Shown piece by piece: positions 2,776 through 19,891 of a DNA stretch of 20,990 bases (position 1 is the first letter of the stretch; each line of letters starts with the position of its first letter). The notes beneath the pieces are model-generated. The model saw only the letters and a list, made by a program, of their open reading frames with translations. It did no database searches and had not been told where the DNA came from. Source of the DNA: a virus (Duplodnaviria; Heunggongvirae; Uroviricota; Caudoviricetes); the IMG/VR virus record IMGVR_UViG_2939121850_000005, one strand, 5' to 3'. The position numbers and the translations under genes are program-made.

Positions 2776-2855
2776 GTTGCCTGAAATTTAAGCTGTTTAA
2801 AATCATGATGTTAGAAAAACTGTTTTTTAACGATGGCGACAAAATGGCGGCGGCG

Positions 2856-3074
2856 TCAAAGAGAGAGCGCCACCTGTCCTGATTTAATTGGATGCGGCTG
2901 AACCGGATTTGACTCTTTTGGCGTTGCAATCGAACGAACAAAAGTTTCATGGGTAACAAAAGTATGGCTGCAGTTAATGTTCTGGCACTGGTTGTAACGC
3001 TCTTTGGTCAATGAAGATACCTGAAAACTGCTGCGAGTATGGGCGGCACTTCCACACAGTGGGCAAATCATCAT
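2856..3074 (-). CDS. ogr: Ogr/Delta-family zinc-finger late-gene activator
   Basis: 72 aa from the MMICPLCGS start (P2 Ogr is 72 aa); Cys pairs CPLC...CQNINC; GGGGAG about 10 nt upstream; lies at the prophage end as in P2. Confidence 0.8.
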   Translation of the reverse strand: MMICPLCGSAAHTRSSFQVSSLTKERYNQCQNINCSHTFVTHETFVRSIATPKESNPVQPHPIKSGQVALSL

Positions 3075-3255: not shown

Positions 3256-4734
3256 ATGGTCCATTCCGCATCATCTAACGAAGCTGACTTAAACCCTAAC
3301 GTCGCCAACCGCAACAAAGGCCCGCGCCGTCAGCCGGAAAAGAATGTCTTCACCGATGAACAGATTGAGAAGCTGGAAGAAATCTTCCATTCCTCCATGT
3401 TCAACTACCAGCGCCACTGGTGGGAAGCCGGAAAAACCAACCGCATCCGCAACCTGCTGAAGTCACGCCAGATCGGCGCGACCTTTTACTTTGCCCGTGA
3501 AGCCCTGATTGACGCCCTGCTTACCGGACGTAACCAGATTTTCCTTTCCGCCAGTAAGGCACAGGCCCACGTCTTTAAGCAGTACATCATCGACTTCGCC
3601 AAAGAAGTGGATGTGGAACTGAAAGGCGATCCGATGGTGCTTCCTAACGGGGCCACGCTTTACTTCCTCGGCACCAATGCCCGCACGGCCCAGAGTTATC
3701 ACGGCAACCTGTATCTGGATGAATATTTCTGGATACCGAAATTTCAGGAGCTACGCAAAGTGGCTTCCGGTATGGCTATTCACAAGAAATGGCGGCAGAC
3801 CTATTTTTCCACACCATCCAGCCTGACCCACAGTGCTTATCCGTTCTGGTCCGGTGCGCTGTTCAACCGTGGACGCAACAAAGCCGACAAGGTGGACATT
3901 GATCTGTCCCACAGCAATCTGGCCCCCGGCCTGCTGTGCGCTGACGGGCAATACCGCCAGATAGTCACCGTGGAAGATGCGGTGCGCGGCGGCTGTAACC
4001 TGTTCGACCTTGACCAGTTGCGCATGGAATACAGCCCGGACGAATACCAGAACCTGCTGATGTGCGAGTTTGTGGACGATCTCGCGTCCGTGTTCCCGCT
4101 CAGCGAACTACAGGCGTGCATGGTGGACAGTTGGGAAGTCTGGACCGACTTTCATGCACTGGCGCTGCGCCCGTTTGGCTGGCGCGAAGTGTGGATCGGT
4201 TATGACCCGGCAAAAGGTACGCAGAACGGCGACAGCGCCGGATGCGTGGTGGTGGCACCGCCAGCCGTGCCGGGCGGTAAGTTCCGCATTCTTGAGCGTC
4301 ACCAGTGGCGCGGGATGGACTTCCGCGCCCAGGCTGACGCCATCAAAAAACTGACTGAACAGTACAACGTGACATACATCGGTATCGACTCAACCGGCGT
4401 CGGTCACGGGGTTTACGAGAACGTGAAAGCGTTTTTTCCTGCCGTCCGGGAGTTTGTCTACAACCCCAACGTTAAAAATGCCCTGGTACTCAAGGCCTAC
4501 GACATTATCAGTCACCGCCGTCTGGAGTTTGACGCCGGACACACCGACATAGCGCAGTCATTTATGGCAATTCGTCGCGCCACCACCGCCAGCGGCAACC
4601 GCCCGACCTATGAAGCCAGCCGCAGCGAAGAAGCCAGCCATGCCGATCTGGCGTGGGCAACAATGCACGCACTGTTTAACGAGCCGCTGCAGGGCGAGTC
4701 CGCCAATACCAGCAATATTGTGGAGATTTTTTGA
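3256..4734 (+). CDS. P: Terminase ATPase subunit (P2 gpP family), possibly N-terminally truncated
   Basis: 492-aa ORF; Walker-A-like KSRQIGATF and Walker-B-like LYLDEYFW, then a nuclease-like C-terminal half; about 100 aa shorter than P2 gpP as I recall it; stop overlaps the Q start. Confidence 0.75.
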   Translation: MVHSASSNEADLNPNVANRNKGPRRQPEKNVFTDEQIEKLEEIFHSSMFNYQRHWWEAGKTNRIRNLLKSRQIGATFYFAREALIDALLTGRNQIFLSASKAQAHVFKQYIIDFAKEVDVELKGDPMVLPNGATLYFLGTNARTAQSYHGNLYLDEYFWIPKFQELRKVASGMAIHKKWRQTYFSTPSSLTHSAYPFWSGALFNRGRNKADKVDIDLSHSNLAPGLLCADGQYRQIVTVEDAVRGGCNLFDLDQLRMEYSPDEYQNLLMCEFVDDLASVFPLSELQACMVDSWEVWTDFHALALRPFGWREVWIGYDPAKGTQNGDSAGCVVVAPPAVPGGKFRILERHQWRGMDFRAQADAIKKLTEQYNVTYIGIDSTGVGHGVYENVKAFFPAVREFVYNPNVKNALVLKAYDIISHRRLEFDAGHTDIAQSFMAIRRATTASGNRPTYEASRSEEASHADLAWATMHALFNEPLQGESANTSNIVEIF

Positions 4735-5762
4735 TGGGAAAGAGTAAGAAGAACCGCGCTGTGTCGACGAACCAGATTCAGCATAAAAGCCAGACTTCAG
4801 CCGAAGCATTCAGCTTTGGCGATCCCGTTCCTGTTCTGGACCGCCGCGAACTGCTGGACTATGTGGAATGCGTACAGACAGATCGCTGGTATGAGCCGCC
4901 AGTGAGTTTTGACGGACTGGCGCGAACCTTCCGCGCTGCCGTGCATCACAGTTCACCAATTGCGGTGAAATGCAACATTCTGACCAGTACCTACATCCCT
5001 CACCCGCTTCTCAGCCAGCAGGCTTTTTCACGTTTTGTGCAGGACTATCTGGTATTTGGTAACGCTTACCTGGAGAAACGCACGAACCGGTTCGGTGAAG
5101 TTATCGCCCTTGAGCCTGCTCTGGCAAAATACACCCGACGTGGGTTAGACCTGGATACCTACTGGTTTGTGCAATACGGTATGACAACCCAGCCGTATCA
5201 GTTCACGAAAGGCAGCATCTTTCATCTGATGGAACCGGATATCAACCAGGAGATCTACGGCCTGCCCGGTTATCTTTCTGCTATTCCGTCAGCCCTGCTC
5301 AACGAGTCCGCCACGTTGTTCCGCCGTAAGTATTACATTAACGGCAGCCATGCAGGCTTCATCATGTATATGACCGATGCCGCGCAAAACCAAGAGGATG
5401 TGAACAACCTCCGCAACGCGATGAAAAGCGCCAAAGGTCCGGGCAACTTCCGCAACCTGTTTATGTACTCGCCTAACGGCAAAAAGGACGGGCTTCAGAT
5501 TATCCCGTTGTCAGAGGTCGCAGCGAAGGATGAGTTTTTGAATATCAAGAACGTGAGCCGGGACGACATGATGGCGGCACACCGCGTGCCGCCGCAAATG
5601 ATGGGGATAATGCCGAATAATGTTGGGGGTTTTGGGGATGTGGAAAAGGCTAGTAAAGTCTTTGTCCGAAATGAATTAATTCCGTTACAAAAAAGGCTTA
5701 TAGAAATTAATACTTGGCTAAATGAAAAAATCATAGCATTTAATGATTACTCATTAAATTAG
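4734..5762 (+). CDS. Q: Portal protein (P2 gpQ family), 3' end recoded by AT-rich DNA
   Basis: ATG at 4734 overlaps the P stop (TGATG) with GGAGA upstream; 342 aa; base composition falls from about 53% to 27% GC near 5640 within the last 40 codons. Confidence 0.75.
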   Translation: MGKSKKNRAVSTNQIQHKSQTSAEAFSFGDPVPVLDRRELLDYVECVQTDRWYEPPVSFDGLARTFRAAVHHSSPIAVKCNILTSTYIPHPLLSQQAFSRFVQDYLVFGNAYLEKRTNRFGEVIALEPALAKYTRRGLDLDTYWFVQYGMTTQPYQFTKGSIFHLMEPDINQEIYGLPGYLSAIPSALLNESATLFRRKYYINGSHAGFIMYMTDAAQNQEDVNNLRNAMKSAKGPGNFRNLFMYSPNGKKDGLQIIPLSEVAAKDEFLNIKNVSRDDMMAAHRVPPQMMGIMPNNVGGFGDVEKASKVFVRNELIPLQKRLIEINTWLNEKIIAFNDYSLN

Positions 5763-5785
5763 ATAAAAAGGGGTTAATCACCCCT
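5763..5785 (-). terminator. Intrinsic terminator for the KAP NTPase gene
   Basis: Hairpin aggggt-taatc-acccct at 5769..5785, followed on the minus strand by TTTTTAT; lies directly between the convergent Q and KAP genes. Confidence 0.5.
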
Positions 5786-5792
5786 ATAAAAA

Positions 5793-7445
5793 TCACAAAA
5801 ATCGCCTTACACGCATTTTATTAATCGCAGATTCATCTCCAATTCTTATCAAGGCATCCCTTGCCTTTTTCCCTATACGATTCATTCTATCAGAACCATT
5901 ACTAAAATTTCCGAATTTAAGCGCCGTAGCTATTATTGAATCACCACCATCAAGAATGACATTTTTAAATAATTGATAGTAGTCATCTACTGAAGCAGCA
6001 TCCAATATTTCCTCATGTCTATCAGACCAACCATTCTGACCTGATAATTTCTTAAGAACATCATATATTGAACCATCAATATTTATAATCTTAGAATAGG
6101 CTTGAATTTTTGACAACAACTCAGTATCTCTTACGGGATGAACATTCACATAAATAGATTGAACATATTCCTTTAGAGCATCGTTACCATAATTAATAAA
6201 CTGTTCAATCAATTCACTCGCCTTAGCATTCTCTCCGAAATCCCTATATAGTCCGACAACATTATCTAAATCACTTGGAGTCACATATTTCATCCCATCA
6301 ACCACCGCTTGATATAGCTTGTCAACAACCTGATTTTGATTGTCATCAAATGAATTATGAAAGAACTGCCATGCCTCAGATAAGGATCCTCGTTTATTAT
6401 CACGCGTAATCTCCTCATTCCTTAGGCTTATTTGTCTTTGGAAACTGCTCTTATCAAGATAGCCATATCTAACCATATCAATAAGAACCTCATCAAGATC
6501 ATTCGTTTTTCTATATCCATATTTAAGCAAGGTATTAAGCCAGACTTTCTCATGGCCTTCTTCCTTGTCATTATAAGTATATATATTCCTCACTCCCCTA
6601 ATATATTCTAGTGATGGCACATCTCCCTCTGGAGAAAATCCGTAATGGCTCCAACAATACAGAGTTAATGAATGCGCAACTTCATTTGAAATTGTCTCAA
6701 CATCACCTATAATATTTGGTGTTAAGGACACGAAAAAACGTTCTATCTTTTTTAAGATTCGAATATTCTTGATACCTAAAGAAATGGAATATTTACTTAA
6801 CAAGTTATAAACATGAGAATCACCTTTATAGGCTATATCTGCGCATTCTTCTGGTGTTGGATTGTAAGTGATATCTCTATCAATGACCTTTTCTTTATAA
6901 GTAGAATAATCCTCCATACTAGCTGTGCCATTGTTAAGCAATAGAACCACCTTACAATCCTTCTGCTCTTTTAATAGAGATACTAGCCCTAAAACATCTT
7001 TAACATCTAAATTTTTGCCACGCCTTTCTAAGTCATCTATTACTACAATCATTTTAGAAACGGTCAGAAATGACATTGCTTCAAGTGTCGTAGAGAAGTT
7101 TTTTACAACAGGAACTTCTTTTAACAAACCTGCTGCTTTTCGAGAAAATGATTCAAAAAGTCCACTTGCGTTTGTTGTTGCTGTCTCCAAATCAGGTTTA
7201 TTTCCAATATATTCCTTTGTAATTGCATTCTCAAAAATAGAATACTTTAAAGAATCTAGTGAATTTATACCAAAAAGAGAGACATAACTATATCTATTAA
7301 ATGCAACCTTATCTTTATTATCTTTTAGGAACGTATTCCAAGTATAGGTTTTACCAATTCCCCATTCACCCTGTATAGCCATTACTTCTGGTTCTGTAGA
7401 TGAGATAAAATCTGACAACTGTTCTTTGATAAACTCTAAGGACAT
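5793..7445 (-). CDS. KAP-family P-loop NTPase (candidate defence cargo)
   Basis: 551 aa from the ATG at 7445 (GGAGAA upstream; the six-frame track extends it to 7637); Walker A GEWGIGKT (nt 7347..7370) and KAP-type VVIDDLERR motif; about 33% GC. Confidence 0.7.
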   Translation of the reverse strand: MSLEFIKEQLSDFISSTEPEVMAIQGEWGIGKTYTWNTFLKDNKDKVAFNRYSYVSLFGINSLDSLKYSIFENAITKEYIGNKPDLETATTNASGLFESFSRKAAGLLKEVPVVKNFSTTLEAMSFLTVSKMIVVIDDLERRGKNLDVKDVLGLVSLLKEQKDCKVVLLLNNGTASMEDYSTYKEKVIDRDITYNPTPEECADIAYKGDSHVYNLLSKYSISLGIKNIRILKKIERFFVSLTPNIIGDVETISNEVAHSLTLYCWSHYGFSPEGDVPSLEYIRGVRNIYTYNDKEEGHEKVWLNTLLKYGYRKTNDLDEVLIDMVRYGYLDKSSFQRQISLRNEEITRDNKRGSLSEAWQFFHNSFDDNQNQVVDKLYQAVVDGMKYVTPSDLDNVVGLYRDFGENAKASELIEQFINYGNDALKEYVQSIYVNVHPVRDTELLSKIQAYSKIINIDGSIYDVLKKLSGQNGWSDRHEEILDAASVDDYYQLFKNVILDGGDSIIATALKFGNFSNGSDRMNRIGKKARDALIRIGDESAINKMRVRRFL

Positions 7446-7573
7446 GTGTTTTCTCCTAGAAAGATAGCCCCGTATTATAACCCTAGAATTATAAAAGTAA
7501 TGAGCGCGCGCTCGTATCCCCGCCACGCCTGCCCGCTTTATGTAGTGTTTTTCATGCACCTGCATGACATAGG

Positions 7574-7599
7574 CAAAAGCCCGCCAGTTATGACGGGCC
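7574..7599 (-). terminator. Intrinsic terminator downstream of the 883-aa gene
   Basis: Stem gcccg / cgggc with a 10-nt loop at 7579..7598, followed on the minus strand by CTTTTG. Confidence 0.45.
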
Positions 7600-7735
7600 T
7601 CAGCATAAAAGATCCCTAAACGATCATGCGTTTTCATGCAGCATAGTTATGCAGGACTATCTATACATCGACAATCTCAGCTTGACCTCATCAGTCGACA
7701 TCAATCTATATGTCGAGTAACTTGACAGGAACCAT

Positions 7736-10387
7736 TCATTGATCCACAAGAGATAAACTAATCTTTTGCTCAACAGCGTTGAAATCGTTCTCTATACGCA
7801 CCCATAGTACTTTACCTTTGGAATACTCATTCATACGGTTAAAACCTGCAGGCAGTTTTGATTTATGTATTAACCCTGTAATTTTTCCTGTAAAGTTAAC
7901 AAAAACACCATATCTATGATCGCAATTCCGTACAGTACCTTCTAATATATCACCTGACTGATACCTAGCTTCGAACTCTGCCCATTCAGGATCGCGTATC
8001 TTTTCCGCAAATGACTTAACAGCATCAATTGCAGGTTGGATATCAGTTAGCCCGTGATATTCATCTCCAGAAATAAATTCGCCTGAAAAACTTGCTATCG
8101 TTTCACGTTGATTTACAAGAAAATCAACTAACTCCTTAGCATTAGCACTAACCATTTCTTTATTATACTGATTTTGAACTGACCCCATCCTTTCAGAGAC
8201 TCTTCTGGCAATTTGCTCAGTAGGGAAAAGAGTATCTTCTGCTAACGCGGCTAGATAGCTAATATTTGAGAGCATATCCAAATGCACAAACCCAGCCGAG
8301 GATAATCTTAGTAAGTCTTCATCAGTTATTCCAGTCTCTCTAAAATCCTCTGAAACTAAACATTGCCCCTGAAGTAAATAATCGACCTCACGAGTTATAA
8401 CCTTTGGAGAAAAACCAAACTTGACTAATCCGTTTTTTAACGCAAACAAAGGAAAGTATCCTTTAAGTCCAGTTGGACCACTTACCCCAAAATTATTATA
8501 GAACCATTTCAAAATTGCAAACCTAGTAAAATGATTAGCCCTCTCATCATCTTTTTCCGTCGAAAATATATTTTTAAGGTATGAGTTATCGCTATCATAA
8601 AATCGACGATTTAATCGTAATAACACTCTGGTCACAATATGTAAAGGAAGCGCATAGCGTCCTTCACTTTGCCTTATTTTTAAAAACTCACCTTCAGTAA
8701 TATGCCCACTAGTGCAGAACTCCAAGAAAATTTCCAAAGCCCTTCGTATATTTCTTCCTGAAAGACCAACAATCATCCTTCTTATTTGTGCATCATGTAC
8801 AAAAATAGAGTTTGCGATTGATGTTAAATAATATGAACGTTCGTCCTTGCTATATTCAACATTAAAGCCGTTAGGAAGTGAATATGAAAGAGTATTGCTA
8901 GCACTAGTTTTTGTCATTTCTTTAAGAACAAGCTGCACTCTTGAATGAAGAACATAATTAAACAACGGTGGTTCAATACGGAAAACCATATCTTTTAAAG
9001 CGGTGTCAAGAGGAGGACGATCTCTATAATTATCATAAGTTTCTTCTCTCAAGGGAAGAATTATTAGTGATCTAAACTCATTTTGGAGCCATTGAGCAGC
9101 CTGAAACATTAGCAACTGTTCAGACAAAGTTCTTTTATCACAATTATCAAGAACTATTACAACTAATTTACCGCGCTCTGTCCCACAATACCGAGTATAG
9201 GCAAGTGCAGTTTCATGTAAATCTGACTTACATTCCCTAATAATTTTAAACAATTCCTTATTATATTCATCCCCAGAAAGTAATTGCCCCTCCCCCTTAT
9301 TAAACTTATTTATCTCAACAGAATAGAGTTTTTTTAAATTATCCAACAAATCAAAATCAATATCTGGGTAAGCTAACTTACATTGTTGAATTATTTTCCC
9401 TCTAAGCCAATCATAAACTTCCCCTGAAGAAACCGGGGATTCATTCATATTAAAACGTAACCAAAGAGTGGTTTTAATAATATCATTTGGGAGCGCGACT
9501 TCTTTTAAATGATCAATGAAAGTTGTTTTTCCTGAACCAACACTGCCAACAATCAATAAAATTTTATTTTCAAGCGGAGATCGCCCTCTAAATTTTTCAA
9601 TTATTTCTTTGGGATTATCAGTATCTTCAATTAATTTAGAATCACTATTGCTTACTGGTTGAGCAGCCCTGATAATTTTATCTATTGGCTGGGTATAGCG
9701 GTCCCTGCGCTTAGATGAAATATACCCTTCACGAGCGATAAACTGTCGATCATTCAGTGTATTTGGATTAAATATATTTCCATACTCTGATATAAGTGTT
9801 GCACCAAAACTATTATGCCCCACCTCTTCGTTCTGAGCTGCCTTCCCTCCCATCATTCTCCTAGGCTTCCAGAATTTTCTAGGTTTTGATTTAGCTATGA
9901 ATTCCTCAGATAATTTCGAGAGAGCTGTAAACGAAAATTCCTCTAAAAAATTTGCACAATTTTTATCAACAGGTGATATCTCATTTAATCGGTAACTACC
10001 CTGGTTATTATCCCATTCCCCCGCAAGCCACTCATATCCATCAGTAGCTATGATTTTGGTAAGAGGATTCATACCACTCTCATATTTTGCATTCAACTCT
10101 AGCGCATATAATCGTGCTTCCTGAAAAGCGCTATCTAAATCCTCTCCAGGAGTTTTTGCTTCTACTAGTAATACAGGAACACCATTTATAATTACAAGAT
10201 AGTCTGGATAATATATTTTTTTGGTACTACCTTTACCTATCTCTAAGCTTTTAATATTTCTTTTAGTGAGTATATACTCTTTATTTATGCCAAGCCCATC
10301 AACAGATTTCTTAGTCAGAAACGGATAAATTATTTTTTGTTCGATATCACTTTCTGTTTCCTTTACTTTATTTATCTTACTACTCAT
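7736..10387 (-). CDS. Multidomain protein: restriction-endonuclease-like PD-(D/E)xK motif, P-loop NTPase and C-terminal S1/OB domain (candidate defence cargo)
   Basis: 883 aa; YPDYLVIINGVPVLLVEAK (aa 60-78); Walker A GSVGSGKTT (nt 9521..9547); Walker B VVIVLDNCD (aa 409-417); S1-like signature GDILEGTVRNCDHRYGVFVNFTGKITGLIHKSKL...GKVLWVRIEN in the last 75 aa; AAGGA RBS; about 33% GC. Confidence 0.75.
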   Translation of the reverse strand: MSSKINKVKETESDIEQKIIYPFLTKKSVDGLGINKEYILTKRNIKSLEIGKGSTKKIYYPDYLVIINGVPVLLVEAKTPGEDLDSAFQEARLYALELNAKYESGMNPLTKIIATDGYEWLAGEWDNNQGSYRLNEISPVDKNCANFLEEFSFTALSKLSEEFIAKSKPRKFWKPRRMMGGKAAQNEEVGHNSFGATLISEYGNIFNPNTLNDRQFIAREGYISSKRRDRYTQPIDKIIRAAQPVSNSDSKLIEDTDNPKEIIEKFRGRSPLENKILLIVGSVGSGKTTFIDHLKEVALPNDIIKTTLWLRFNMNESPVSSGEVYDWLRGKIIQQCKLAYPDIDFDLLDNLKKLYSVEINKFNKGEGQLLSGDEYNKELFKIIRECKSDLHETALAYTRYCGTERGKLVVIVLDNCDKRTLSEQLLMFQAAQWLQNEFRSLIILPLREETYDNYRDRPPLDTALKDMVFRIEPPLFNYVLHSRVQLVLKEMTKTSASNTLSYSLPNGFNVEYSKDERSYYLTSIANSIFVHDAQIRRMIVGLSGRNIRRALEIFLEFCTSGHITEGEFLKIRQSEGRYALPLHIVTRVLLRLNRRFYDSDNSYLKNIFSTEKDDERANHFTRFAILKWFYNNFGVSGPTGLKGYFPLFALKNGLVKFGFSPKVITREVDYLLQGQCLVSEDFRETGITDEDLLRLSSAGFVHLDMLSNISYLAALAEDTLFPTEQIARRVSERMGSVQNQYNKEMVSANAKELVDFLVNQRETIASFSGEFISGDEYHGLTDIQPAIDAVKSFAEKIRDPEWAEFEARYQSGDILEGTVRNCDHRYGVFVNFTGKITGLIHKSKLPAGFNRMNEYSKGKVLWVRIENDFNAVEQKISLSLVDQ

Positions 10388-10400
10388 ACTCTAGTCCTTA

Positions 10401-10434
10401 TCAAACCAAAAGGCACTTAATTTCTTAAGTGCCT
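10401..10434 (-). terminator. Terminator-like hairpin in the leader of the 883-aa gene
   Basis: Perfect 10-bp stem aggcacttaa / ttaagtgcct with a 4-nt loop, followed on the minus strand by TTTGGTTTG, about 15 nt upstream of the RBS. Confidence 0.4.
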
Positions 10435-10896
10435 ATAATATAGCGTCTGGTAATTTAATAAAAGTCACATGTCAATATCAAAATAAAAAGGCACCTTGAG
10501 ACTAGACCCATAAAAACAAAAAGTCAACATGTTATTTCATACAGTGTGAAAATTAAAGATTTTACAAAACAATAAGTTACAAATCAAACGCGCAATCACA
10601 TGTTGACTGACATCACATATTTAAACTGAAGTAGTAACTTCATTTGCCTTATAGTCTCATGTAACAATTACACTGTTCCTTTAGAGAAGGAACCTTATCT
10701 CTATGAGAACTGTTATATAAACACTTGATGTAAAAAAGCTCAATACCATAGCTACCGCCCATGAGGCTACAGATTGCTGCTTGGGGATATAGAAAGCACA
10801 AATTATAGTAACGATCTGATTCAATAGAGTTCATTTCCATCAAGCTAATCTTCTAGCTTTTATCGATCATTATTTCAATGCACATACAGACTCCCT

Positions 10897-11085
10897 TTAA
10901 CTGGAAACTTCCGTTGACCGGCTGTATTCATGGCTGCGAATTTTCGCCATCAGCTCGTCTGTCAGTTCGGACACCCACTGGATAGCCAGCCGCTTTTCTT
11001 CGTCGCTGCACTCACTAGCCGCTACAAGCTTGATAAAAAAATCAATACGCTGAAGCTTCAATGACTCCAAAAGATAGTCCTGCAT
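10897..11085 (-). CDS. Small hypothetical protein (62 aa) downstream of a LexA box
   Basis: ATG at 11085 preceded by AGGAGG with a 4-nt spacer (MQDYLLESLKLQRIDFF...); identity not recognised. Confidence 0.45.
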   Translation of the reverse strand: MQDYLLESLKLQRIDFFIKLVAASECSDEEKRLAIQWVSELTDELMAKIRSHEYSRSTEVSS

Positions 11086-11133
11086 CTTCCCTCCTATCAT
11101 TACACGGATACACAAAAACTGTATATACACCCA

Positions 11134-11149
11134 CTGTTTATATAAACAG
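11134..11149. promoter_or_regulatory. LexA (SOS) box CTGTTTATATAAACAG
   Basis: Perfect palindromic CTGT-N8-ACAG about 50 nt upstream of the small ORF on the minus strand; TATAAT directly adjacent on the plus strand; a weaker CTGTATATAC half-box lies at 11119. Confidence 0.5.
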
Positions 11150-11243
11150 TATAATAGGAACAGAAAAATGTAAAACTGTTTTTTGTCAGTTAATTGGATG
11201 TACTGATGTCGGTCAATAAAGCACAAAATGTTAAACAGCAGCC

Positions 11244-13637
11244 TTAGTACCATTGACGCCATTTGTCATCTTCCTGCAGCCTCTGGTTACGGTAAAAAAT
11301 ACGTAAACCGGCACCGGATGGAATGCTGCCGCCACGCAGAAGCAAATCAATCTCAGATGCACTACCTTCAAACCCCCTGGTTGTCAGTTCTGCCTCAAGC
11401 TGCAGGCGCTGCTGCTCCAAAATACTCTGTATGTATGCTTTTTTCCGCTTCGGTTTTACCAGTCTCAACCTGGCTGTCAGCTCCCGCCGTTCCTTCTGGC
11501 CCATGTTGTGGAGATATTCCTGCAGCTCCTTCTCATCCATGGTTTTAATATCGGGTAAATCACCCCCTGATTTGTTCAGATTTTCAACAGGGGGACAGTT
11601 ATTGCCACGAGTCCAAGGGGCGCAAGCGCCCTGGTCGGCTGCCGCCTCCTGAACGTCAACGGCTTTACGAACCATTTTCCACTTCACTGCATGAGTGCAG
11701 ATCTTGCCCTCTGCAATGGGTGACCAGATGCCATAAATACGAATGCCATGATCGCCATAGGCGGTCGGCTCTTCGTTGATTTCATAAGCGGTTCTGATGA
11801 GGTGATATTTACGGGGAACCAGTACGCCGCCCTGCTTCATGATGTAGGTGGCAAAACAACCAGCATCAGCAGCAGCCAGAATGGCATCAAGACGCGGGTT
11901 ATCCAGTACCGGCGCACCTGCTTTTTTGTCACCCTGTTGCCTTGCCGCCTGACCAGCCAGCAAGCGAAGTTCACGGTAAGCCTGACGCCCCGGAATACCA
12001 AAGAAGCGGAATTGCTGAACACGATGCAGAGACGCCCAGGCATTCACGTATTCAGCGTTATCACGCAGAGATTTACCCGTTTCCTTGCTGATCTCGCCAG
12101 CCAGACCACGACCGTCAATGTTCTTACTGATATATTTCGCGATGTAGCTTGTCGGCGTTCCTTTGCGCGGGTTAATCAACTCAGACTTAAAGCGCGGCCC
12201 AGTGTTATTGCCCAGCTCCTCGCGGTCTTCACGGATGGCAAACTTACGCAGTAATGCAGTGATGGCACGGCGGTCTTTTTTGCGCATGAAACACAACAGG
12301 TGCCAGTGAACTGTGCCATCATGATGCGGCTCAGCCACCCGCACGCCATACCAGCGCAACCCGGCTTTGTGCATCGCCTTACGAAATGCAGCAAACATAC
12401 CGACCAGATAATCGCTGCTTTGTCTTACCGTCGCGTTTGTCCAGGTCGGGTTTGGTCTGCCGTTATTTAGCGTGGAATGGAAACGCGACGGACAGGTGAT
12501 AGTGTAGAAAACGGCGCAGTCACCGCGCATTTCCGCGATAAGCTCCAGACCTTTAACACAGGCCATCATCTCATTGCGGCGATGCGCAGGGTTGCTGCTG
12601 CTGGCGTTTACCACATCCTCCATGTCCAGCGTGTCGCCGTCTTCGTTCACCAGTTCATGAGAACGGAAAAACTCCAGCGACTTACGACGCTGCTCACGTT
12701 TATGCATCACGGCTTCATAGCTGACATAAGGAGATGCTTTTTTGCTGACCAGGCAAACAGCGCGCAACTGCTCTTCCCGCCATTCGCAACGCATCTTCCA
12801 TAATTTCCGATACCACCAGTCGGCGCACAACATACGCGCCAGCGAACCCGGAATGAGTTCATAGGGCACGGGTTTACGGCGGTTTCTTTTCCGACGGAGT
12901 TGCTCAAACGCAGGTGGGATGACATCCAGACGCAGGGTTTCCGCTGCCACCTTTTCCCATGTCTTGCGGATTTCTTCTGGCTTAACGTCATCGGTGGCAT
13001 ACAAATCACCACAAGCTGCATCAAGGCACATACTCATATGCGCAGCTACCAGGGTGGAAAGGCGTTTCACCTGATCCTGACTCATTTCAGGCAGGATCAG
13101 CAGGCCGTCCAGCCCTTCATGGCTTGCCATAAAGCGAAAAGATGCAGATAGCTGACTGTCGCGTACATGCTCCAGTCGTTCCAGACATGGCTTAATCGTC
13201 TCACGTAAATAGCGGGAATAAGCCTTTGGCCTGCCCAGGCTGCTGAAGTATTCAATACGTTGCATCAGCGGCTTGCTGATATGGGAAGGCTGGGCGTTGA
13301 CGTCCGCCAGAATGACCATGTCTGAATTAAAACGCTGCTGCTCATGCGCCAGCTTTGCCCGGCTAATGAGCTTATCCTGCTCCATTTCGCGCTGGACAGG
13401 ATCACGTGATTCATTAAAGAAATAACGCTCCCAGACCTGATCACTCAGTGCCTCGCGGCGCAACTGTTCCTGCTCGTTATCGGCAGCGTACAGAGTGATC
13501 AGGTTTGAAAGCGTAGAAACCGGCGCAACTTCCGCCGGGTCCAGATAAGGGTTAATGGCCTTTTTCGGGCTGTTCCATGAGAATGCTGCGGCAGCCTCGT
13601 TAAAGCCGCAGCAGTTGTTCATATCGGCATGACTCAT
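11244..13637 (-). CDS. A: Replication initiation endonuclease (P2 gpA family, HUH rolling-circle Rep)
   Basis: 797 aa; HUH motif [10 protein letters not shown] and double-tyrosine motif [13 protein letters not shown]; GGAG RBS; ATGA overlap with the upstream dam stop. Confidence 0.8.
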
Positions 13638-15778: not shown

Positions 15779-16288
15779 TCACAGCAAACCGAATGAAGCA
15801 CCAAGGCCAGTCATGGTATCAACTGCACTCGCCATCGCAGGATTAGCCTGTAAACGGGCTTGCAATGAAACAGCAGCCAGCGCCATCAGTCGTGTTACAG
15901 AGTTAATGCTGCTGATAGCATCACGACGACCTGCACTGGTTTTTACATCGCCAGATACCGCACCTGCAGCAACACGCCCGATCTCTGCGGTTGCACTCAT
16001 GACGTAATGCGGTAGTTTCTCTTTTGCCACCTCATTAATCGGAACACATGGCAGACAATGAATCTGTGCCAGAAAACCATCTACCAGCGTTGAATCTTCA
16101 GTCAGATCGGTAAGCAACCAAATTTCTGGTGCGGTTAATAAATGAGGTTGAGCTGGGTTCAGTTTGTTCCGCAGAATCTGCACATTCATGCCTGCACGTT
16201 CTGCCAGTTGCACCAGATTGTGGCGCAGTGCGAATGCACGACAGGCTTCATCAAAATGTGGATGTTTGGAAACTTGGTAATCAAACAT
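15779..16288 (-). CDS. CII-like HTH transcriptional regulator (186 CII-like by position and size)
   Basis: 169 aa from MFDYQ with GAGGTG RBS; HTH-like [16 protein letters not shown]; directly downstream of the Apl/Cox-like gene. Confidence 0.55.
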
Positions 16289-16320
16289 GGTCGACACCTC
16301 TGATGTATCCCAAAATGGAA

Positions 16321-16542
16321 CTAGTTGAATACAACATTGCAATCAGTAAGTGCATCAACGGTAAGAGCAGCAAGGTTGATCATTACCTTTTCTCTTTTCT
16401 TGTCTTTCCGAAGGCGATGCCGAGGGATGCGACCGTCAGCCAGCATATCGTTAATTGTGTCGATTGAAAGACCAGTAAGTTCGCTATAACGCTCAATTGT
16501 GACATGTGGCGTATTCAGGGTTATTGAAATGTTAGGGGTCAT
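16321..16542 (-). CDS. Apl/Cox-like excisionase-type small DNA-binding regulator
   Basis: 73 aa; HTH-like [26 protein letters not shown]; first gene of the lytic-direction operon, divergent from the CI-like gene; AGGAG upstream. Confidence 0.5.
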
Positions 16543-16630: not shown

Positions 16631-17566
16631 ATGTCAACACATGAAATCACATTTCGCCATGTGGACGAAAAAAAGAAATCCTTAATCATGCAGAATCGCG
16701 GAGGGCAATCGGTTATAGATCGGATACTGAAAGCCTATGGTTTTTCTTCCCGACAAGCATTCTGTAATCACCTAGGTATATCGCAAAGTACAATGGCGAA
16801 CAGGTATGCCCGTGACACTTTCCCTGCTGATTGGGTTGTTATCTGTAGCATGGAGACTGGAGTGCCGGTCGAGTGGTTGGCATTTGGCACTGATACCGAG
16901 AAGGGAAGCATTACAAATAATGCAGAAAAAAGTCACAACAATTGTGACAGCAAGCATCAACATCTCAATAGAGAACAAGACATCCAAAATGAGAACTCTT
17001 TTACTATTAACCAAGGTGGAAAAGCAGCAATAGAGCGAATCGTTTTGGCTTATGGATTTAAGACAAGACAAGCTTTAGCTGATCATATTGGTGTATCAAA
17101 AAGTACATTAGCCAATCGTTACATGAGAGATACCTTTCCTGCTGACTGGATTATTCAATGCTCACTGGAAACCGGTGCTTCATTAACATGGCTAACCACT
17201 GGTAACGGGGCAATGTTTGAAAAGCCTCGAAACGATACTATCACTATCCCATATCATAAAATAATTGATGGATCTCTTGCTCAAGAAACCTTCTTGACTT
17301 TTGACTCTAAGTTGTTAGAAGGAACCTTTCTGCAACCTTTAGCAGTATTCATTGATGAGGAAATATATATTGTAGAATCAAAATTTAATGAAGTTACTGA
17401 TGGCAAGTGGCTTGTGAATATTGAAGGGAAAATAAGTATCAAAGATTTGACTCGCATACCCGTTGGTATGGTTAAAGTTGTAGGCACTAACGCAAGTTTT
17501 GAATGCTTACTTACTGACATTATCGTTTTGGCAAAATGTAAAAGAGTTTTTACTAAAAATGTATAA
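16631..17566 (+). CDS. CI-like repressor with tandemly duplicated HTH domain (186 CI-type)
   Basis: 311 aa; two about 64-aa repeats (aa 24-87 and 129-192, about 60% identical) each with an HTH-like core (ILKAYGFSSRQAFCNHLGISQSTMANRY / IVLAYGFKTRQALADHIGVSKSTLANRY); about 37% GC; start codon uncertain (no clear SD). Confidence 0.6.
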   Translation: MSTHEITFRHVDEKKKSLIMQNRGGQSVIDRILKAYGFSSRQAFCNHLGISQSTMANRYARDTFPADWVVICSMETGVPVEWLAFGTDTEKGSITNNAEKSHNNCDSKHQHLNREQDIQNENSFTINQGGKAAIERIVLAYGFKTRQALADHIGVSKSTLANRYMRDTFPADWIIQCSLETGASLTWLTTGNGAMFEKPRNDTITIPYHKIIDGSLAQETFLTFDSKLLEGTFLQPLAVFIDEEIYIVESKFNEVTDGKWLVNIEGKISIKDLTRIPVGMVKVVGTNASFECLLTDIIVLAKCKRVFTKNV

Positions 17567-17577
17567 AGAGAAACATC

Positions 17578-18522
17578 ATGACTGAACCAACCAATAAAGA
17601 TAGCGAAATAAAAAAACACCTATTAGAATTTCTTGATTCACAGTCTGAAAATATAGCAAAACACTTCTACTCTCATATAAAAGACTTAATAGAAGCAGGA
17701 GAGCTTTCTGAAGCTCATAATAACCTAGCGCTAATTGAAAAATACATAACTAGGCCACCGATGGATGAAGAACCCAATATAAATGAAAATAAAGCCAATA
17801 AAAGAAAAAATGTAAAATCACTTGAACCTAATAATTATGTAGAACATATAATACAATTAGAAGAACGAAACAGCATATTAACTCTACAGTTAGAGCATTA
17901 TACTCAGGATCTTAATAGAAAAAACGCAATAATCGAAAACAACGTAAAACAAATTAATTCATTGATTAGTGAAAATAAGGAACTCCGTAGCCAAGTACAG
18001 CAACAAAGAATCGATGATAAAATCCCCACCTATGTTAACGATGTTAAATCAGATCTTGGTAGTGATGACAAACATTTTATATTGATGTCTATTATCTGGT
18101 CTATTGCAGGGGTATTTTTTGGCTTCCTTGCAGTAGTATCTGCTTTTTTTACATTATACATGAACTTAGATTTAAAAAATCTCACTAACCTTCAGTTAAT
18201 ATATATCTTCACGCGAGGATTAGTTGGAATCGCCATTCTTTCATGGCTATCATATATCTGCCTTAGTAACTCAAAAAAGTACACACATGAATCGATCAGG
18301 CGAAAAGATCGTCGACATGCTTTGATGTTTGGTCAAGTTTTTTTGCAGATATACGGTTCTACAGCAACTAAAGAGGATGCAATAGAAGTCTTTAAGGATT
18401 GGAATATTTCAGGTGACTCTGCATTTTCAGGTCAGACAGAGCAACCACCGAGTTTTGCGTCATTTTTGAATACAATCAAAGACAAAGTTAAAGTAACTGG
18501 AAGTGATAAAGAAACAGATTAA
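17578..18522 (+). CDS. Coiled-coil / two-TM membrane protein of unknown function (candidate exclusion or abortive-infection moron)
   Basis: 314 aa starting 11 nt after the CI-like stop; charged coiled-coil N-terminal half and two hydrophobic helices (FILMSIIWSIAGVFFGFLAVVSAFF, GLVGIAILSWLSYICL); strongly AT-rich. Confidence 0.6.
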   Translation: MTEPTNKDSEIKKHLLEFLDSQSENIAKHFYSHIKDLIEAGELSEAHNNLALIEKYITRPPMDEEPNINENKANKRKNVKSLEPNNYVEHIIQLEERNSILTLQLEHYTQDLNRKNAIIENNVKQINSLISENKELRSQVQQQRIDDKIPTYVNDVKSDLGSDDKHFILMSIIWSIAGVFFGFLAVVSAFFTLYMNLDLKNLTNLQLIYIFTRGLVGIAILSWLSYICLSNSKKYTHESIRRKDRRHALMFGQVFLQIYGSTATKEDAIEVFKDWNISGDSAFSGQTEQPPSFASFLNTIKDKVKVTGSDKETD

Positions 18523-18567
18523 TCATGAACATGTATGCTACTAAGTAAAAAATACATTGAATACTGT

Positions 18568-18575
18568 TGTTATAT
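18568..18575. repeat. 8-bp target-site duplication TGTTATAT (left copy)
   Basis: Identical octamer immediately flanks both IS ends. Confidence 0.6.
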
Positions 18576-19891
18576 GGGTCTTCCCTTGTTGTGGTGGCTG
18601 AAGGCATGATAATGGTGTATTTAATCGCCAGAGGTCACCGCCATGGACGAAAAGTCCCTCTACGCTCATATTCTCAACCTGTCCGATCCGTGGCAGGTAA
18701 AGTCCCTTTCTCTCGATGAAAATGCCGGTTCTGTTACTGTCACTATTGAGATCGCTGAAAACACCCGGCTAGCCTGTCCGACCTGCGGTAAATCCTGTTC
18801 TGTTCACGATCACCGTCATCGTAAATGGCGCCATCTTGATACCTGCCAGTTCACCACTATTGTTGAAGCCGATGTTCCACGAATTATGTGTCCGGAGCAT
18901 GGCTGCCTGACGTTGCCTGTTCCGTGGGCTGGCCCCGGAAGCCGGTATACGTTGCTATTCGAATCGTTCGTTCTCTCATGGCTGAAAATCAGCACCGTTG
19001 ATGCTGTCAGGAAGCAACTTAAGCTCAGTTGGAATGCGGTTGACGGCATTATGACCCGGGCAGTTAAGCGAGGTCTTGCCCGGATAAAAAAGCCATTATC
19101 CGCCCGTCATATGAATGTGGATGAGGTCGCCTTTAAAAAAGGACATCGTTACATAACGGTGATCTCCGATCGCGATGGTCGGGCGCTGGCCTTAACGGAT
19201 GATCGCGGCACAGAGAGTCTTGCCGGCTATCTTCGCACGCTCACTGATGGGCAGTTGCTGGCTATCAAAACGCTCTCAATGGACATGAACGCGGGCTATA
19301 TAAGAGCAGCGCGTATCTACTTACCCAGTGCGGTTGAGAAAATCGCCTTTGACCGCTTCCATGTGGCGAAGCAACTGGGCGAGGTAGTTGATAAAACCCG
19401 TCAGAATGAACATCCGCACCTCCCTGTTGAAAGCCGACACCAGGCAAAAGGAACCCGCTTCCTGTGGCAGTACAGCGATAAGTGGATGACCGAATCCCGG
19501 CAGGAAAAGCTGATGTGGCTGCGTGCACAGATGAAGCTGACGAGCCAGTGCTGGGCGCTGAAAGAGCTGGCAAAGGATATCTGGAACAGGCCATGGAGCG
19601 AGGAAAGACGGAGTGACTGGCAGAGATGGTTGGCGCTGGCGGCTAACAGTGACGTTCCCATGATGAAAAATGCCGCGAAAACGATAGGAAAAAGGCTGTA
19701 CGGGATCCTGAATGCGATGCGACACAGTGTCTCAAACGGAAATGCGGAGGCACTTAACAGCAAGATCAGGCTGCTGAGGATAAAAGCCAGGGGATACCGA
19801 AACCGGGAGCGCTTTAAACTGGGGGTGATGTTCCACTACGGAAAGCTGAATATGGCGTTCTGAGCCTTCCCACCATGATCGGGGAAGACCC
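18576..19891 (+). mobile_element. ISL3-family insertion sequence (1316 bp)
   Basis: Imperfect terminal inverted repeats beginning GGGTCTTCCC at both ends (left 18576..18604; right 19864..19891, reverse complement); one transposase ORF; flanked by an 8-bp direct repeat. Confidence 0.75.
18643..19863 (+). CDS. ISL3-family transposase
   Basis: 406 aa; N-terminal Cys/His zinc-finger (CPTCGKSC...CPEHGC), DDE-type core, C-terminal SNGNAEALNSKIRLLRIKARGYRNRERF typical of ISL3 transposases; GAGGT RBS. Confidence 0.75.
   Translation: MDEKSLYAHILNLSDPWQVKSLSLDENAGSVTVTIEIAENTRLACPTCGKSCSVHDHRHRKWRHLDTCQFTTIVEADVPRIMCPEHGCLTLPVPWAGPGSRYTLLFESFVLSWLKISTVDAVRKQLKLSWNAVDGIMTRAVKRGLARIKKPLSARHMNVDEVAFKKGHRYITVISDRDGRALALTDDRGTESLAGYLRTLTDGQLLAIKTLSMDMNAGYIRAARIYLPSAVEKIAFDRFHVAKQLGEVVDKTRQNEHPHLPVESRHQAKGTRFLWQYSDKWMTESRQEKLMWLRAQMKLTSQCWALKELAKDIWNRPWSEERRSDWQRWLALAANSDVPMMKNAAKTIGKRLYGILNAMRHSVSNGNAEALNSKIRLLRIKARGYRNRERFKLGVMFHYGKLNMAF

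Follow-up and report, generated by a model that had tools for sequence, protein, structure and literature searches.

The LexA-boxed tumA locus

The DNA analyzed here (20,990 nucleotides, nt; IMG/VR record IMGVR_UViG_2939121850_000005), hereafter the window, contains an open reading frame of 62 codons (ORF62) that directly follows the replication gene A of a P2-family prophage. It is preceded by a LexA-boxed promoter region and followed by a decayed dinI-like gene and two cargo genes (Table 1). The original prediction, made from the sequence alone, had noticed a perfect CTGT-N8-ACAG box, CTGTTTATATAAACAG, about 50 nt ahead of a 62-amino-acid (aa) frame with an AGGAGG site, at the position where phage 186 carries the SOS-controlled antirepressor gene tum. 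These observations hold: the box is the only match to the pattern in the window, 48 nt separate its end from the ORF62 ATG, and the placement after the replication gene agrees with the 186 record. The order gpA (11244-13637), ORF62 (10897-11085) and dinI remnant (10885-10652) is also that of SEN8, MLG42, SopEPhi, Fels-2, PSP3 and, in fused form, 186.

Taken alone, the pattern match of box 1 was weakly significant, with 0.14 matches expected by chance and at least one match in 13 of 100 shuffles. It stands beyond chance because it is kept at the same site in related loci: a CTGT-N8-ACAG box overlapping the -10 hexamer, 5' of an ORF62 homolog, was found in all 15 related phage loci and in four further IMG/VR loci. 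In a nine-sequence alignment of the spacer between A and tumA, the -35 and -10 hexamers and both half-sites were invariant and the flanks were variable with indels; the invariant blocks comprised GTTTTACAT (-35), TATACTGT, TATAAACAGT, TACAG and AGGAGG. LexA sites were scored with a heterology-index-type (HI-like) matrix rebuilt from 28 E. coli LexA sites, an approximate matrix that reproduces the published ranking with absolute values lower than the published ones. Box 1 scored 3.2 on this approximate scale, the best of the 41,942 20-mers in the window.

The putative tumA promoter was placed on the minus strand by analogy with p95 of phage 186. TTTACA, a 17-nt spacer and TACTGT follow one another, and the last hexamer starts the 20-mer TACTGTTTATATAAACAGTG. 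Box 1 overlaps this -10-like element, or the alternative TATACT, exactly as in the annotated 186 p95 promoter (TTCACA-18-TACTGT).

A second LexA box, GTGGGTGTATATACAG, overlaps box 1 and was, by the approximate matrix, the second-best 20-mer of the window (HI-like score 7.8). It was present in 12 of 12 Fels-2-type loci (scores 6.3-12.4) and absent at the same offset from 186, PSP3, ESSI-2, Yersinia (Yen324) and ENT90-type loci, where scores were 27-36. The arrangement resembles the double operator of the colicin gene cea in ColE1 (NC_001371), for which we verified CTGTATATAAAACCAGTGGTTATATGTACAG upstream of cea at 5063-5093. Both consist of two 16-mers with one common nucleotide and a 15-bp offset, the first near-consensus and the second with a GTGG left half; moreover, the Fels-2 box-2 20-mer, CAGTGGTTATATGTACAGTA, is the ColE1 box-2 20-mer. 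The two operators differ in that the colicin operator drives a toxin/lysis operon and the one described here a phage antirepressor gene, and occupancy of the latter by two LexA dimers is putative, the scores being those of the approximate matrix. In colicins, two overlapping SOS boxes go together with tight repression and undetectable basal expression (PMC2994835), and by analogy the double box may repress tumA tightly as well.

Relationship of ORF62 to Tum and of its neighbor to DinI

An in-frame extension of ORF62 to 121 aa (10897-11262 in the list of open reading frames) was rejected, and the 62-aa start is considered real, because the upstream alignment contains non-triplet indels and homologs are annotated with 60-62 aa. 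The protein matches phrog_698 (PHROG 698, "unknown function"; E 2.6e-35) and is annotated as hypothetical in RefSeq (WP_001376441). A tblastn search found it in 74 phage records, nearly all of them Peduoviridae from Klebsiella, Escherichia, Salmonella, Yersinia, and Cronobacter. Its homologs directly follow gene A in the annotated records inspected, and in most of these (SEN8, MLG42, SopEPhi, Cartapus, RE2010 and Fels-2) a 77-aa DinI gene comes next. With 53 of 62 residues identical to Fels-2 STM2728 (62 aa), ORF62 is a known type of protein, tumA, and the earlier option of a new small SOS-induced protein is dropped.

The connection to 186 Tum appeared at the profile level, where ESSI-2, Yersinia vB_YenM_324 and 201.16, and ENT90 supplied bridging intermediates. 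In hhalign, the profile of the ORF62 type aligned with the Tum N-terminal/TumA profile at 96.2% probability (E 2.4e-9, columns 2-42 with 2-42). As a control, a hidden Markov model (HMM) of the Tum N-terminal set only was run over the window, 186, PSP3, Fels-2, and the E. coli locus, cut into 2,080 stop-to-stop segments; its only significant matches were ORF62 (E 1.9e-5) and STM2728 (about 2e-5), the next best having E 2.3. The reverse HMM, of the ORF62 type, found 186 Tum with E 4e-4 (next best 2.6). The comparison with 186 Tum and DinI that had been proposed earlier thus came out positive for Tum by profile, and negative for Tum by BLASTP and for DinI. The DinI-like part of 186 Tum comprises residues 72-142, and its counterpart in the window is the downstream pseudogene, not ORF62.

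A sequence search of the PDB with the ORF62 profile returned nothing meaningful, and one with 186 Tum returned only DinI (1ghh), through the C-terminal half. A single-sequence AlphaFold model folds ORF62 into a hairpin of two helices (2-23 and 28-61; mean predicted local distance difference test score 88). Compared with SEN8, tumA differs at 13 of 189 nucleotides, distributed 2/1/10 over the codon positions, and since 10 of the 13 differences fall at third positions, purifying selection on the gene is indicated. By homology and conservation, ORF62 is an intact gene and is identified as tumA, the half of a split tum that encodes the antirepressor. Of the earlier description as a tum-like remnant, the likeness to tum therefore stands, through the profile homology to the N-terminal half of Tum, and the remnant does not, as the gene is intact and under purifying selection.

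The true remnant at the locus, absent from the original prediction, is the DinI-like tumB downstream. Its frame opens with ATG at 10885 and reads MCIEIMIDKS before a TAG at codon 11. In a codon-by-codon comparison with SEN8 dinI (Fels-2 dinI was also compared), nucleotide identity was 0.85 in the initial 39 nt and dropped to a chance-level 0.26 at the 3' end. The differences were even across codon positions (42/30/39), and the G+C content was 35%, compared with 46% in intact dinI. Because of the early TAG, the fading identity, the even codon-position differences, and the low G+C, tumB is identified as a pseudogene, in which A+T-rich cargo DNA has taken the place of the 3' part. In loci L020 and L024, the tumA-adjacent dinI is likewise truncated or decayed next to the same cargo, and this is so wherever the 883-aa cargo gene adjoins a Fels-2-type tumA. 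The pattern suggests a cassette recombination boundary inside dinI. A LexA box candidate at about 10710, CTGTTATATAAACAC, was rejected for its wrong spacing and its position within the decayed dinI. In Fels-2 (L030), a terminator-like hairpin lies on the minus strand at 25315-25341, right after tumB and at the start of the orf97-sized STM2726; it recalls the partial terminator t95a of 186, and the equivalent region has been lost from the window.

Host prophage, CI repressor and cargo genes

The window is E. coli chromosome: 1 kb of it was 100% identical to WCHEC020031 and many others, and the locus was present at an identity of at least 99% in 108 of 5,426 complete E. coli genomes. It holds a defective P2-family prophage located between ybjL/rybB and rcdA, in the order ogr, D fragment/terminase, Q, 614-aa gene, 883-aa gene, ORF62, A, dam, small early genes, cII, CI, 314-aa ORF, ISKox3, and int. 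At about 3277, a fragment of the tail gene D is joined to a large terminase gene that lacks its N-terminal part, and therefore all head, tail, and lysis genes are deleted. CI, cII, A, and dam are full-length. The host small RNA gene rybB (Rfam RF00110, 105 bits; 2700-2778) lies by the ogr-side end of the prophage, with ogr at about 2856-3074. Between the CI and integrase genes, positions 17578-19863 of the plus strand carry a 314-aa ORF without a Pfam, NCBIfam, or PADLOC match and the transposase gene of ISKox3 (ISL3 family), which may uncouple int from the lysogenic operon.

Table 1. Positions of the genes and regulatory features discussed in the text (window coordinates)
Feature	Position	Strand	Basis or remark
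LexA box 1, CTGTTTATATAAACAG	11134..11149	palindromic, no strand	perfect CTGT-N8-ACAG palindrome
LexA box 2, GTGGGTGTATATACAG	11119..11134	-	one nucleotide common with box 1, starting at its last G
-35 hexamer TTTACA, p95-like tumA promoter (putative)	11169..11174	-	invariant block GTTTTACAT in nine loci; placed by analogy with 186 p95
-10 hexamer TACTGT, 17-nt spacer (putative)	11146..11151	-	same hexamer and LexA-box overlap as annotated 186 p95; TATACTGT invariant
Alternative -10 TATACT, 15-nt spacer	11148-11153	-	
Shine-Dalgarno AGGAGG	11090..11095	-	4 nt ahead of ATG; read directly; invariant in nine-sequence alignment
tumA (ORF62), 62 codons	10897..11085	-	ATG 11085, stop TAA 10899-10897; homolog of N-terminal half of 186 Tum
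tumB/dinI pseudogene	10652..10885	-	TAG at codon 11; homology recognizable to about 10735 only
Replication gene A	11244..13637	-	Pfam Phage_GPA, E 4e-128; fixes synteny with 186 (A, p95, tum)
cII	15779-16342	-	
CI repressor, presumed TumA target	16688..17566	+	Pfam Phage_CI_repr (PF07022, two copies) and Phage_CI_C (PF16452); RefSeq "phage repressor protein CI"
Portal gene Q	4731-5762	+	
Cargo gene 1, 883 aa	7736..10387	-	Pfam/PHROG: HsdR_N nuclease-like domain, P-loop, C-terminal S1 (RNA-binding) domain
Cargo gene 2, 614-aa KAP-family P-loop NTPase	5793..7637	-	Pfam KAP_NTPase; PADLOC candidate PDC-S49, E 7e-28
Terminator ending cargo operon	5769-5785	-	terminator scan
Cargo promoter TTGACT-N17-TAGTCT	10499..10527	-	conserved in seven loci with 65-100% identical cargo genes and different phage backgrounds
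Terminator-like hairpin AGGCACTTAAGAAATTAAGTGCCT with UUUUGG	10411..10434	-	terminator scan; 23 nt ahead of cargo ATG
LexA-box-like CTGTATGAAATAACAT (weak lead)	10529..10544	-	abuts -35 of cargo promoter

The CI of the window has no match to Peptidase_S24, the self-cleaving domain, in Pfam. It is a long-form CI, with 292 aa and an N-terminal helix-turn-helix that is duplicated, like PSP3 CI (286 aa); 186 CI has 192 aa and Fels-2 CI 210 aa. Because CI is without an S24 self-cleavage domain, SOS induction must go through an antirepressor, as in 186.

P2-like phages are known to carry an anti-phage hotspot between gpA and gpQ (Rousset et al. 2022, PMC9122126). In the window it holds two cargo genes forming one operon on the minus strand (5793-10387), with no named defence system matched. 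ORF62 lies upstream of the 883-aa gene on the same strand, as had been stated. PADLOC returned only weak P-loop matches for the 883-aa protein, and a tblastn query with the N-terminal 300 aa of the cargo protein had no match among GenBank phages; homologs at 44-100% identity were found in 13 IMG/VR loci.

The cargo operon has its own promoter, with the consensus TTGACT-N17-TAG(T/C)CT across homologs, followed by a terminator-like hairpin with folding z-scores of -3.0 and -4.4. In homologs, hairpin and U run lie about 65 nt past the promoter and 15-25 nt before the ATG; in L021 and L023 they stand at the same place with a different sequence, making three sequences in all with a conserved structure. 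The hairpin might act as an attenuator or an insulator, or it might be a small RNA. Rfam, searched over the whole window and with a relaxed threshold over 10350-11250, gave only the host RybB and one chance sub-threshold hit. On the minus strand, the block 10385-10560 is conserved as a unit: a LexA-like 16-mer, the promoter, a variable leader, and the hairpin with its U run before the ribosome-binding site. Its counterpart in L017, L019, L020, L021, L023, and L024 lies at about 2815-3003. When IMG/VR was scanned for the pattern of the cargo promoter block, six contigs already known to carry the cargo protein were recovered, together with one match at a contig end, where the cargo was unchecked. 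Because the scan gave essentially cargo-bearing contigs, there is no evidence for a portable promoter module.

The LexA-box-like 16-mer of this block, CTGTATGAAATAACAT, had the third-best HI-like score in the window (11.6, next to chance sites at 12.1 and 12.2 by the approximate matrix), and its register is kept in homologous loci (scores 9.2-16). It was rejected as a confident LexA site, as its score is indistinguishable from those of the best chance sites and the invariant G of CAG is missing. Additionally, a 19-nt sequence, TTTTTAACTTATTGTTTTA, is common to the ColE1 cea leader (L029, about 437-455) and the DNA ahead of the cargo promoter; the match is exact in L020 (about 2808-2826), near-exact in the window (about 10560-10590) and in L021, and not collinear with the SOS boxes. 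Collinear homology of the cargo upstream region with the ColE1 regulatory region was rejected, only a block of 19-28 nt being common and the order being different.

Interpretation of the SOS module

Annotated relatives give the locus its context. In the 186 record (U32222), gene A is followed by p95, described as "SOS-dependent transcription of SOS operon", with a LexA site overlapping the -10, and by tum (146 aa), "expression repressed by LexA; inhibits CI DNA binding", which has internal starts, Tum95.5 being the DinI-like C-terminal half. The PSP3 record describes tumA as "similar to 5' end 186 tum; UV induction of prophage" and tumB as "similar to dinI and 3' end of 186 tum". According to Lemire et al. 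2011 (PMC3121763), a stop codon divides tum into two in Fels-2 and PSP3; for PSP3 the same paper assigns the antirepressor activity to the upstream gene, on the basis of a personal communication given in Bunny et al. 2002.

The pairs STM2728/STM2726.1 of Fels-2 and tumA/tumB of PSP3 occupy the same place as the genes described here, after gene A and before the gpA-gpQ hotspot, with a first gene of 60-62 aa and a LexA box over the -10; Fels-2 also has the double overlapping box. The window differs from both in that its second gene is a pseudogene and the element is a defective remnant in E. coli, and from PSP3 in that the TumA of PSP3 belongs to a more distant sequence subtype and follows a single box. 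The p95-tum-orf97 region of 186 resembles the window in the LexA-repressed promoter right after gene A, the CI without an autocleavage domain, and the profile-level homology of the Tum N-terminal half with ORF62; its SOS operon reaches into a downstream accessory gene (orf97). In contrast to the window, 186 has Tum as a single fusion of antirepressor and DinI-like halves, a single LexA box, and a 5' untranslated region of 20 nt instead of 48 nt. The dinI-antirepressor operons of Gifsy-type phages (GfoA/GftA) are similar in having a LexA-controlled promoter, a small antirepressor with a dinI homolog, and an uncleaved repressor (PMC3121763); they differ in the reversed order, with dinI first, and in belonging to lambdoid phages, and the likeness is one of arrangement, not of antirepressor sequence. 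By sequence and synteny, we assign the locus to the known Fels-2/PSP3 family of split-tum SOS operons, the unfused form of 186 tum.

On sequence features, conservation, homology, and repressor type, the region is very probably the SOS operon of a Fels-2/186-type P2-family prophage, with TumA acting on CI; LexA binding, promoter activity, the binding of TumA to CI, and the downstream effects are what this reading predicts. In undamaged cells, LexA would sit on the strong box 1 over the -10, and probably also on the weaker box 2 over the transcription start, and keep the promoter shut. DNA damage would activate RecA and lead to the self-cleavage of LexA, upon which the tumA promoter would fire and the 62-aa two-helix TumA would be made. 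As a homolog of PSP3 TumA and of the Tum N-terminal half in 186, this protein would bind the non-cleavable 186-type CI and block its binding to the operator, so that the early lytic operon (an apl-like gene, cII, fil, dam, and A) would be derepressed. In an intact phage the result would be prophage induction. In the window, where the structural genes are deleted, no virions can arise; all that could follow is early-gene expression, perhaps accompanied by replication or excision in situ, or else an effect in trans on a different P2-like prophage. The half encoding the DinI-like modulator, tumB, has decayed.

Several points weigh against this reading. No Pfam or NCBIfam family covers ORF62, and Pfam, NCBIfam, and PADLOC all returned no match; pairwise BLASTP with 186 Tum gave no alignment, the identity being too low. 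The putative promoter was not called by a consensus promoter scan, and its -10 TACTGT is weak by consensus. The antirepressor role of the 62-aa Fels-2-type TumA comes from homology, and the assignment of this activity in PSP3 from a personal communication. TumA identity is 85-95% across phages that share only 36-53% CI identity with the window, and in ST11-OXA245phi3.1 the CI is 98% identical to the window CI, yet the TumA is 85.5% identical. Either TumA recognizes a conserved feature of CI, which would allow cross-talk, or the pairing of TumA and CI is loose; because TumA does not co-vary with CI, a specific pairing in the window element is only putative. Lastly, the prophage is defective, and the module may just be carried along passively in a lineage that is clonal.

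This last point can be extended to the view that the box and ORF62 are inert leftovers, intact in sequence and without consequence, which persist as the lineage is young and clonal. We consider this rather doubtful. The structural genes are gone, tumB is decayed, and ISKox3 lies between the CI region and int, all of which would fit an element falling apart, and the near-identity of the 108 E. coli genomes leaves within-lineage selection not assessable. However, tumA, its ribosome-binding site, the promoter, and both boxes are intact while the adjoining tumB has decayed, and CI, cII, A, and dam are full-length. A near-consensus site such as box 1 would, moreover, almost certainly bind LexA whatever follows downstream.

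A different role for the SOS promoter would be to drive mainly the hotspot cargo, by transcription through tumA, the dead dinI, and a leaky leader hairpin, which would make the putative defence genes damage-inducible; the original prediction had already suggested that DNA damage could raise transcription into the cargo. tumA and both cargo genes are co-oriented, no minus-strand intrinsic terminator was called between 10897 and 10434 in the terminator scan, and the U tract of the cargo hairpin is interrupted (UUUUGGUUUGA), so termination could be partial. There is a precedent in 186, where orf97 lies within the p95 SOS operon after the partial terminator t95a. In L017, L020, L024, and L021, the same cargo directly follows a LexA-boxed tumA, and in the window the weak LexA-like CTGTATGAAATAACAT abuts the cargo promoter; SOS, LexA, and tum were unmentioned in the P2-hotspot papers checked. 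Nevertheless, in all contexts examined the cargo comes with a conserved TTGACT-N17-TAGNCT promoter of its own, and a terminator-like hairpin, conserved in structure over three sequences, stands just ahead of its ATG. The stretch of about 510 nt from the tumA stop to the cargo ATG is without an intact coding sequence and may favour Rho-dependent termination, and CTGTATGAAATAACAT has a chance-level score by the approximate matrix (11.6, the best random site having 12.1) and is without the invariant G of CAG. We therefore judge it unlikely that driving the cargo is the main role of this promoter. SOS-linked cargo expression in general is possible but unsupported, and we rate it as improbable. Equally speculative, and held with little confidence, is the idea that the gpA-gpQ hotspot cargo is wired to SOS by read-through and/or CTGTATGAAATAACAT, the tumA module then serving as a damage switch for the 883-aa/KAP-NTPase pair, or alternatively that TumA, being decoupled from the immunity type of CI, induces heteroimmune P2-like prophages in trans.

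That ORF62 could be a DinI-family or otherwise new SOS modulator acting on RecA, and not an antirepressor, is very improbable: its homologs are co-transcribed with a dinI homolog and are annotated only as "hypothetical" in other records, but it has no DinI similarity by Pfam, NCBIfam, or hhalign (0.8% probability against Fels-2 DinI), its significant profile homology is to the non-DinI half of Tum, and the 186 record gives the modulating role to the DinI-like portion (Tum95.5).

Read as a tumA-type SOS operon, the locus is largely ordinary and would not surprise a specialist in P2 and 186. Some freshness lies only in the profile link for PHROG 698, in the double operator, and in a hotspot within reach of an SOS promoter, the last being a tentative idea. 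The profile link suggests a function for a family listed as unknown or hypothetical (PHROG 698; WP_001376441), which was beyond the reach of pairwise BLAST to Tum. The double-box design of the Fels-2-type tum promoter, as in colicin operators, predicts very tight and late induction. That the gpA-gpQ defence hotspot lies just past an SOS promoter raises the question, absent from the hotspot papers checked, of whether hotspot cargoes are damage-inducible. In addition, a defective prophage present in 108 complete E. coli genomes at an identity of at least 99% still carries a near-consensus SOS-controlled switch, which is relevant for reading SOS transcriptomes and for prophage cross-talk after DNA damage, for example during quinolone treatment.

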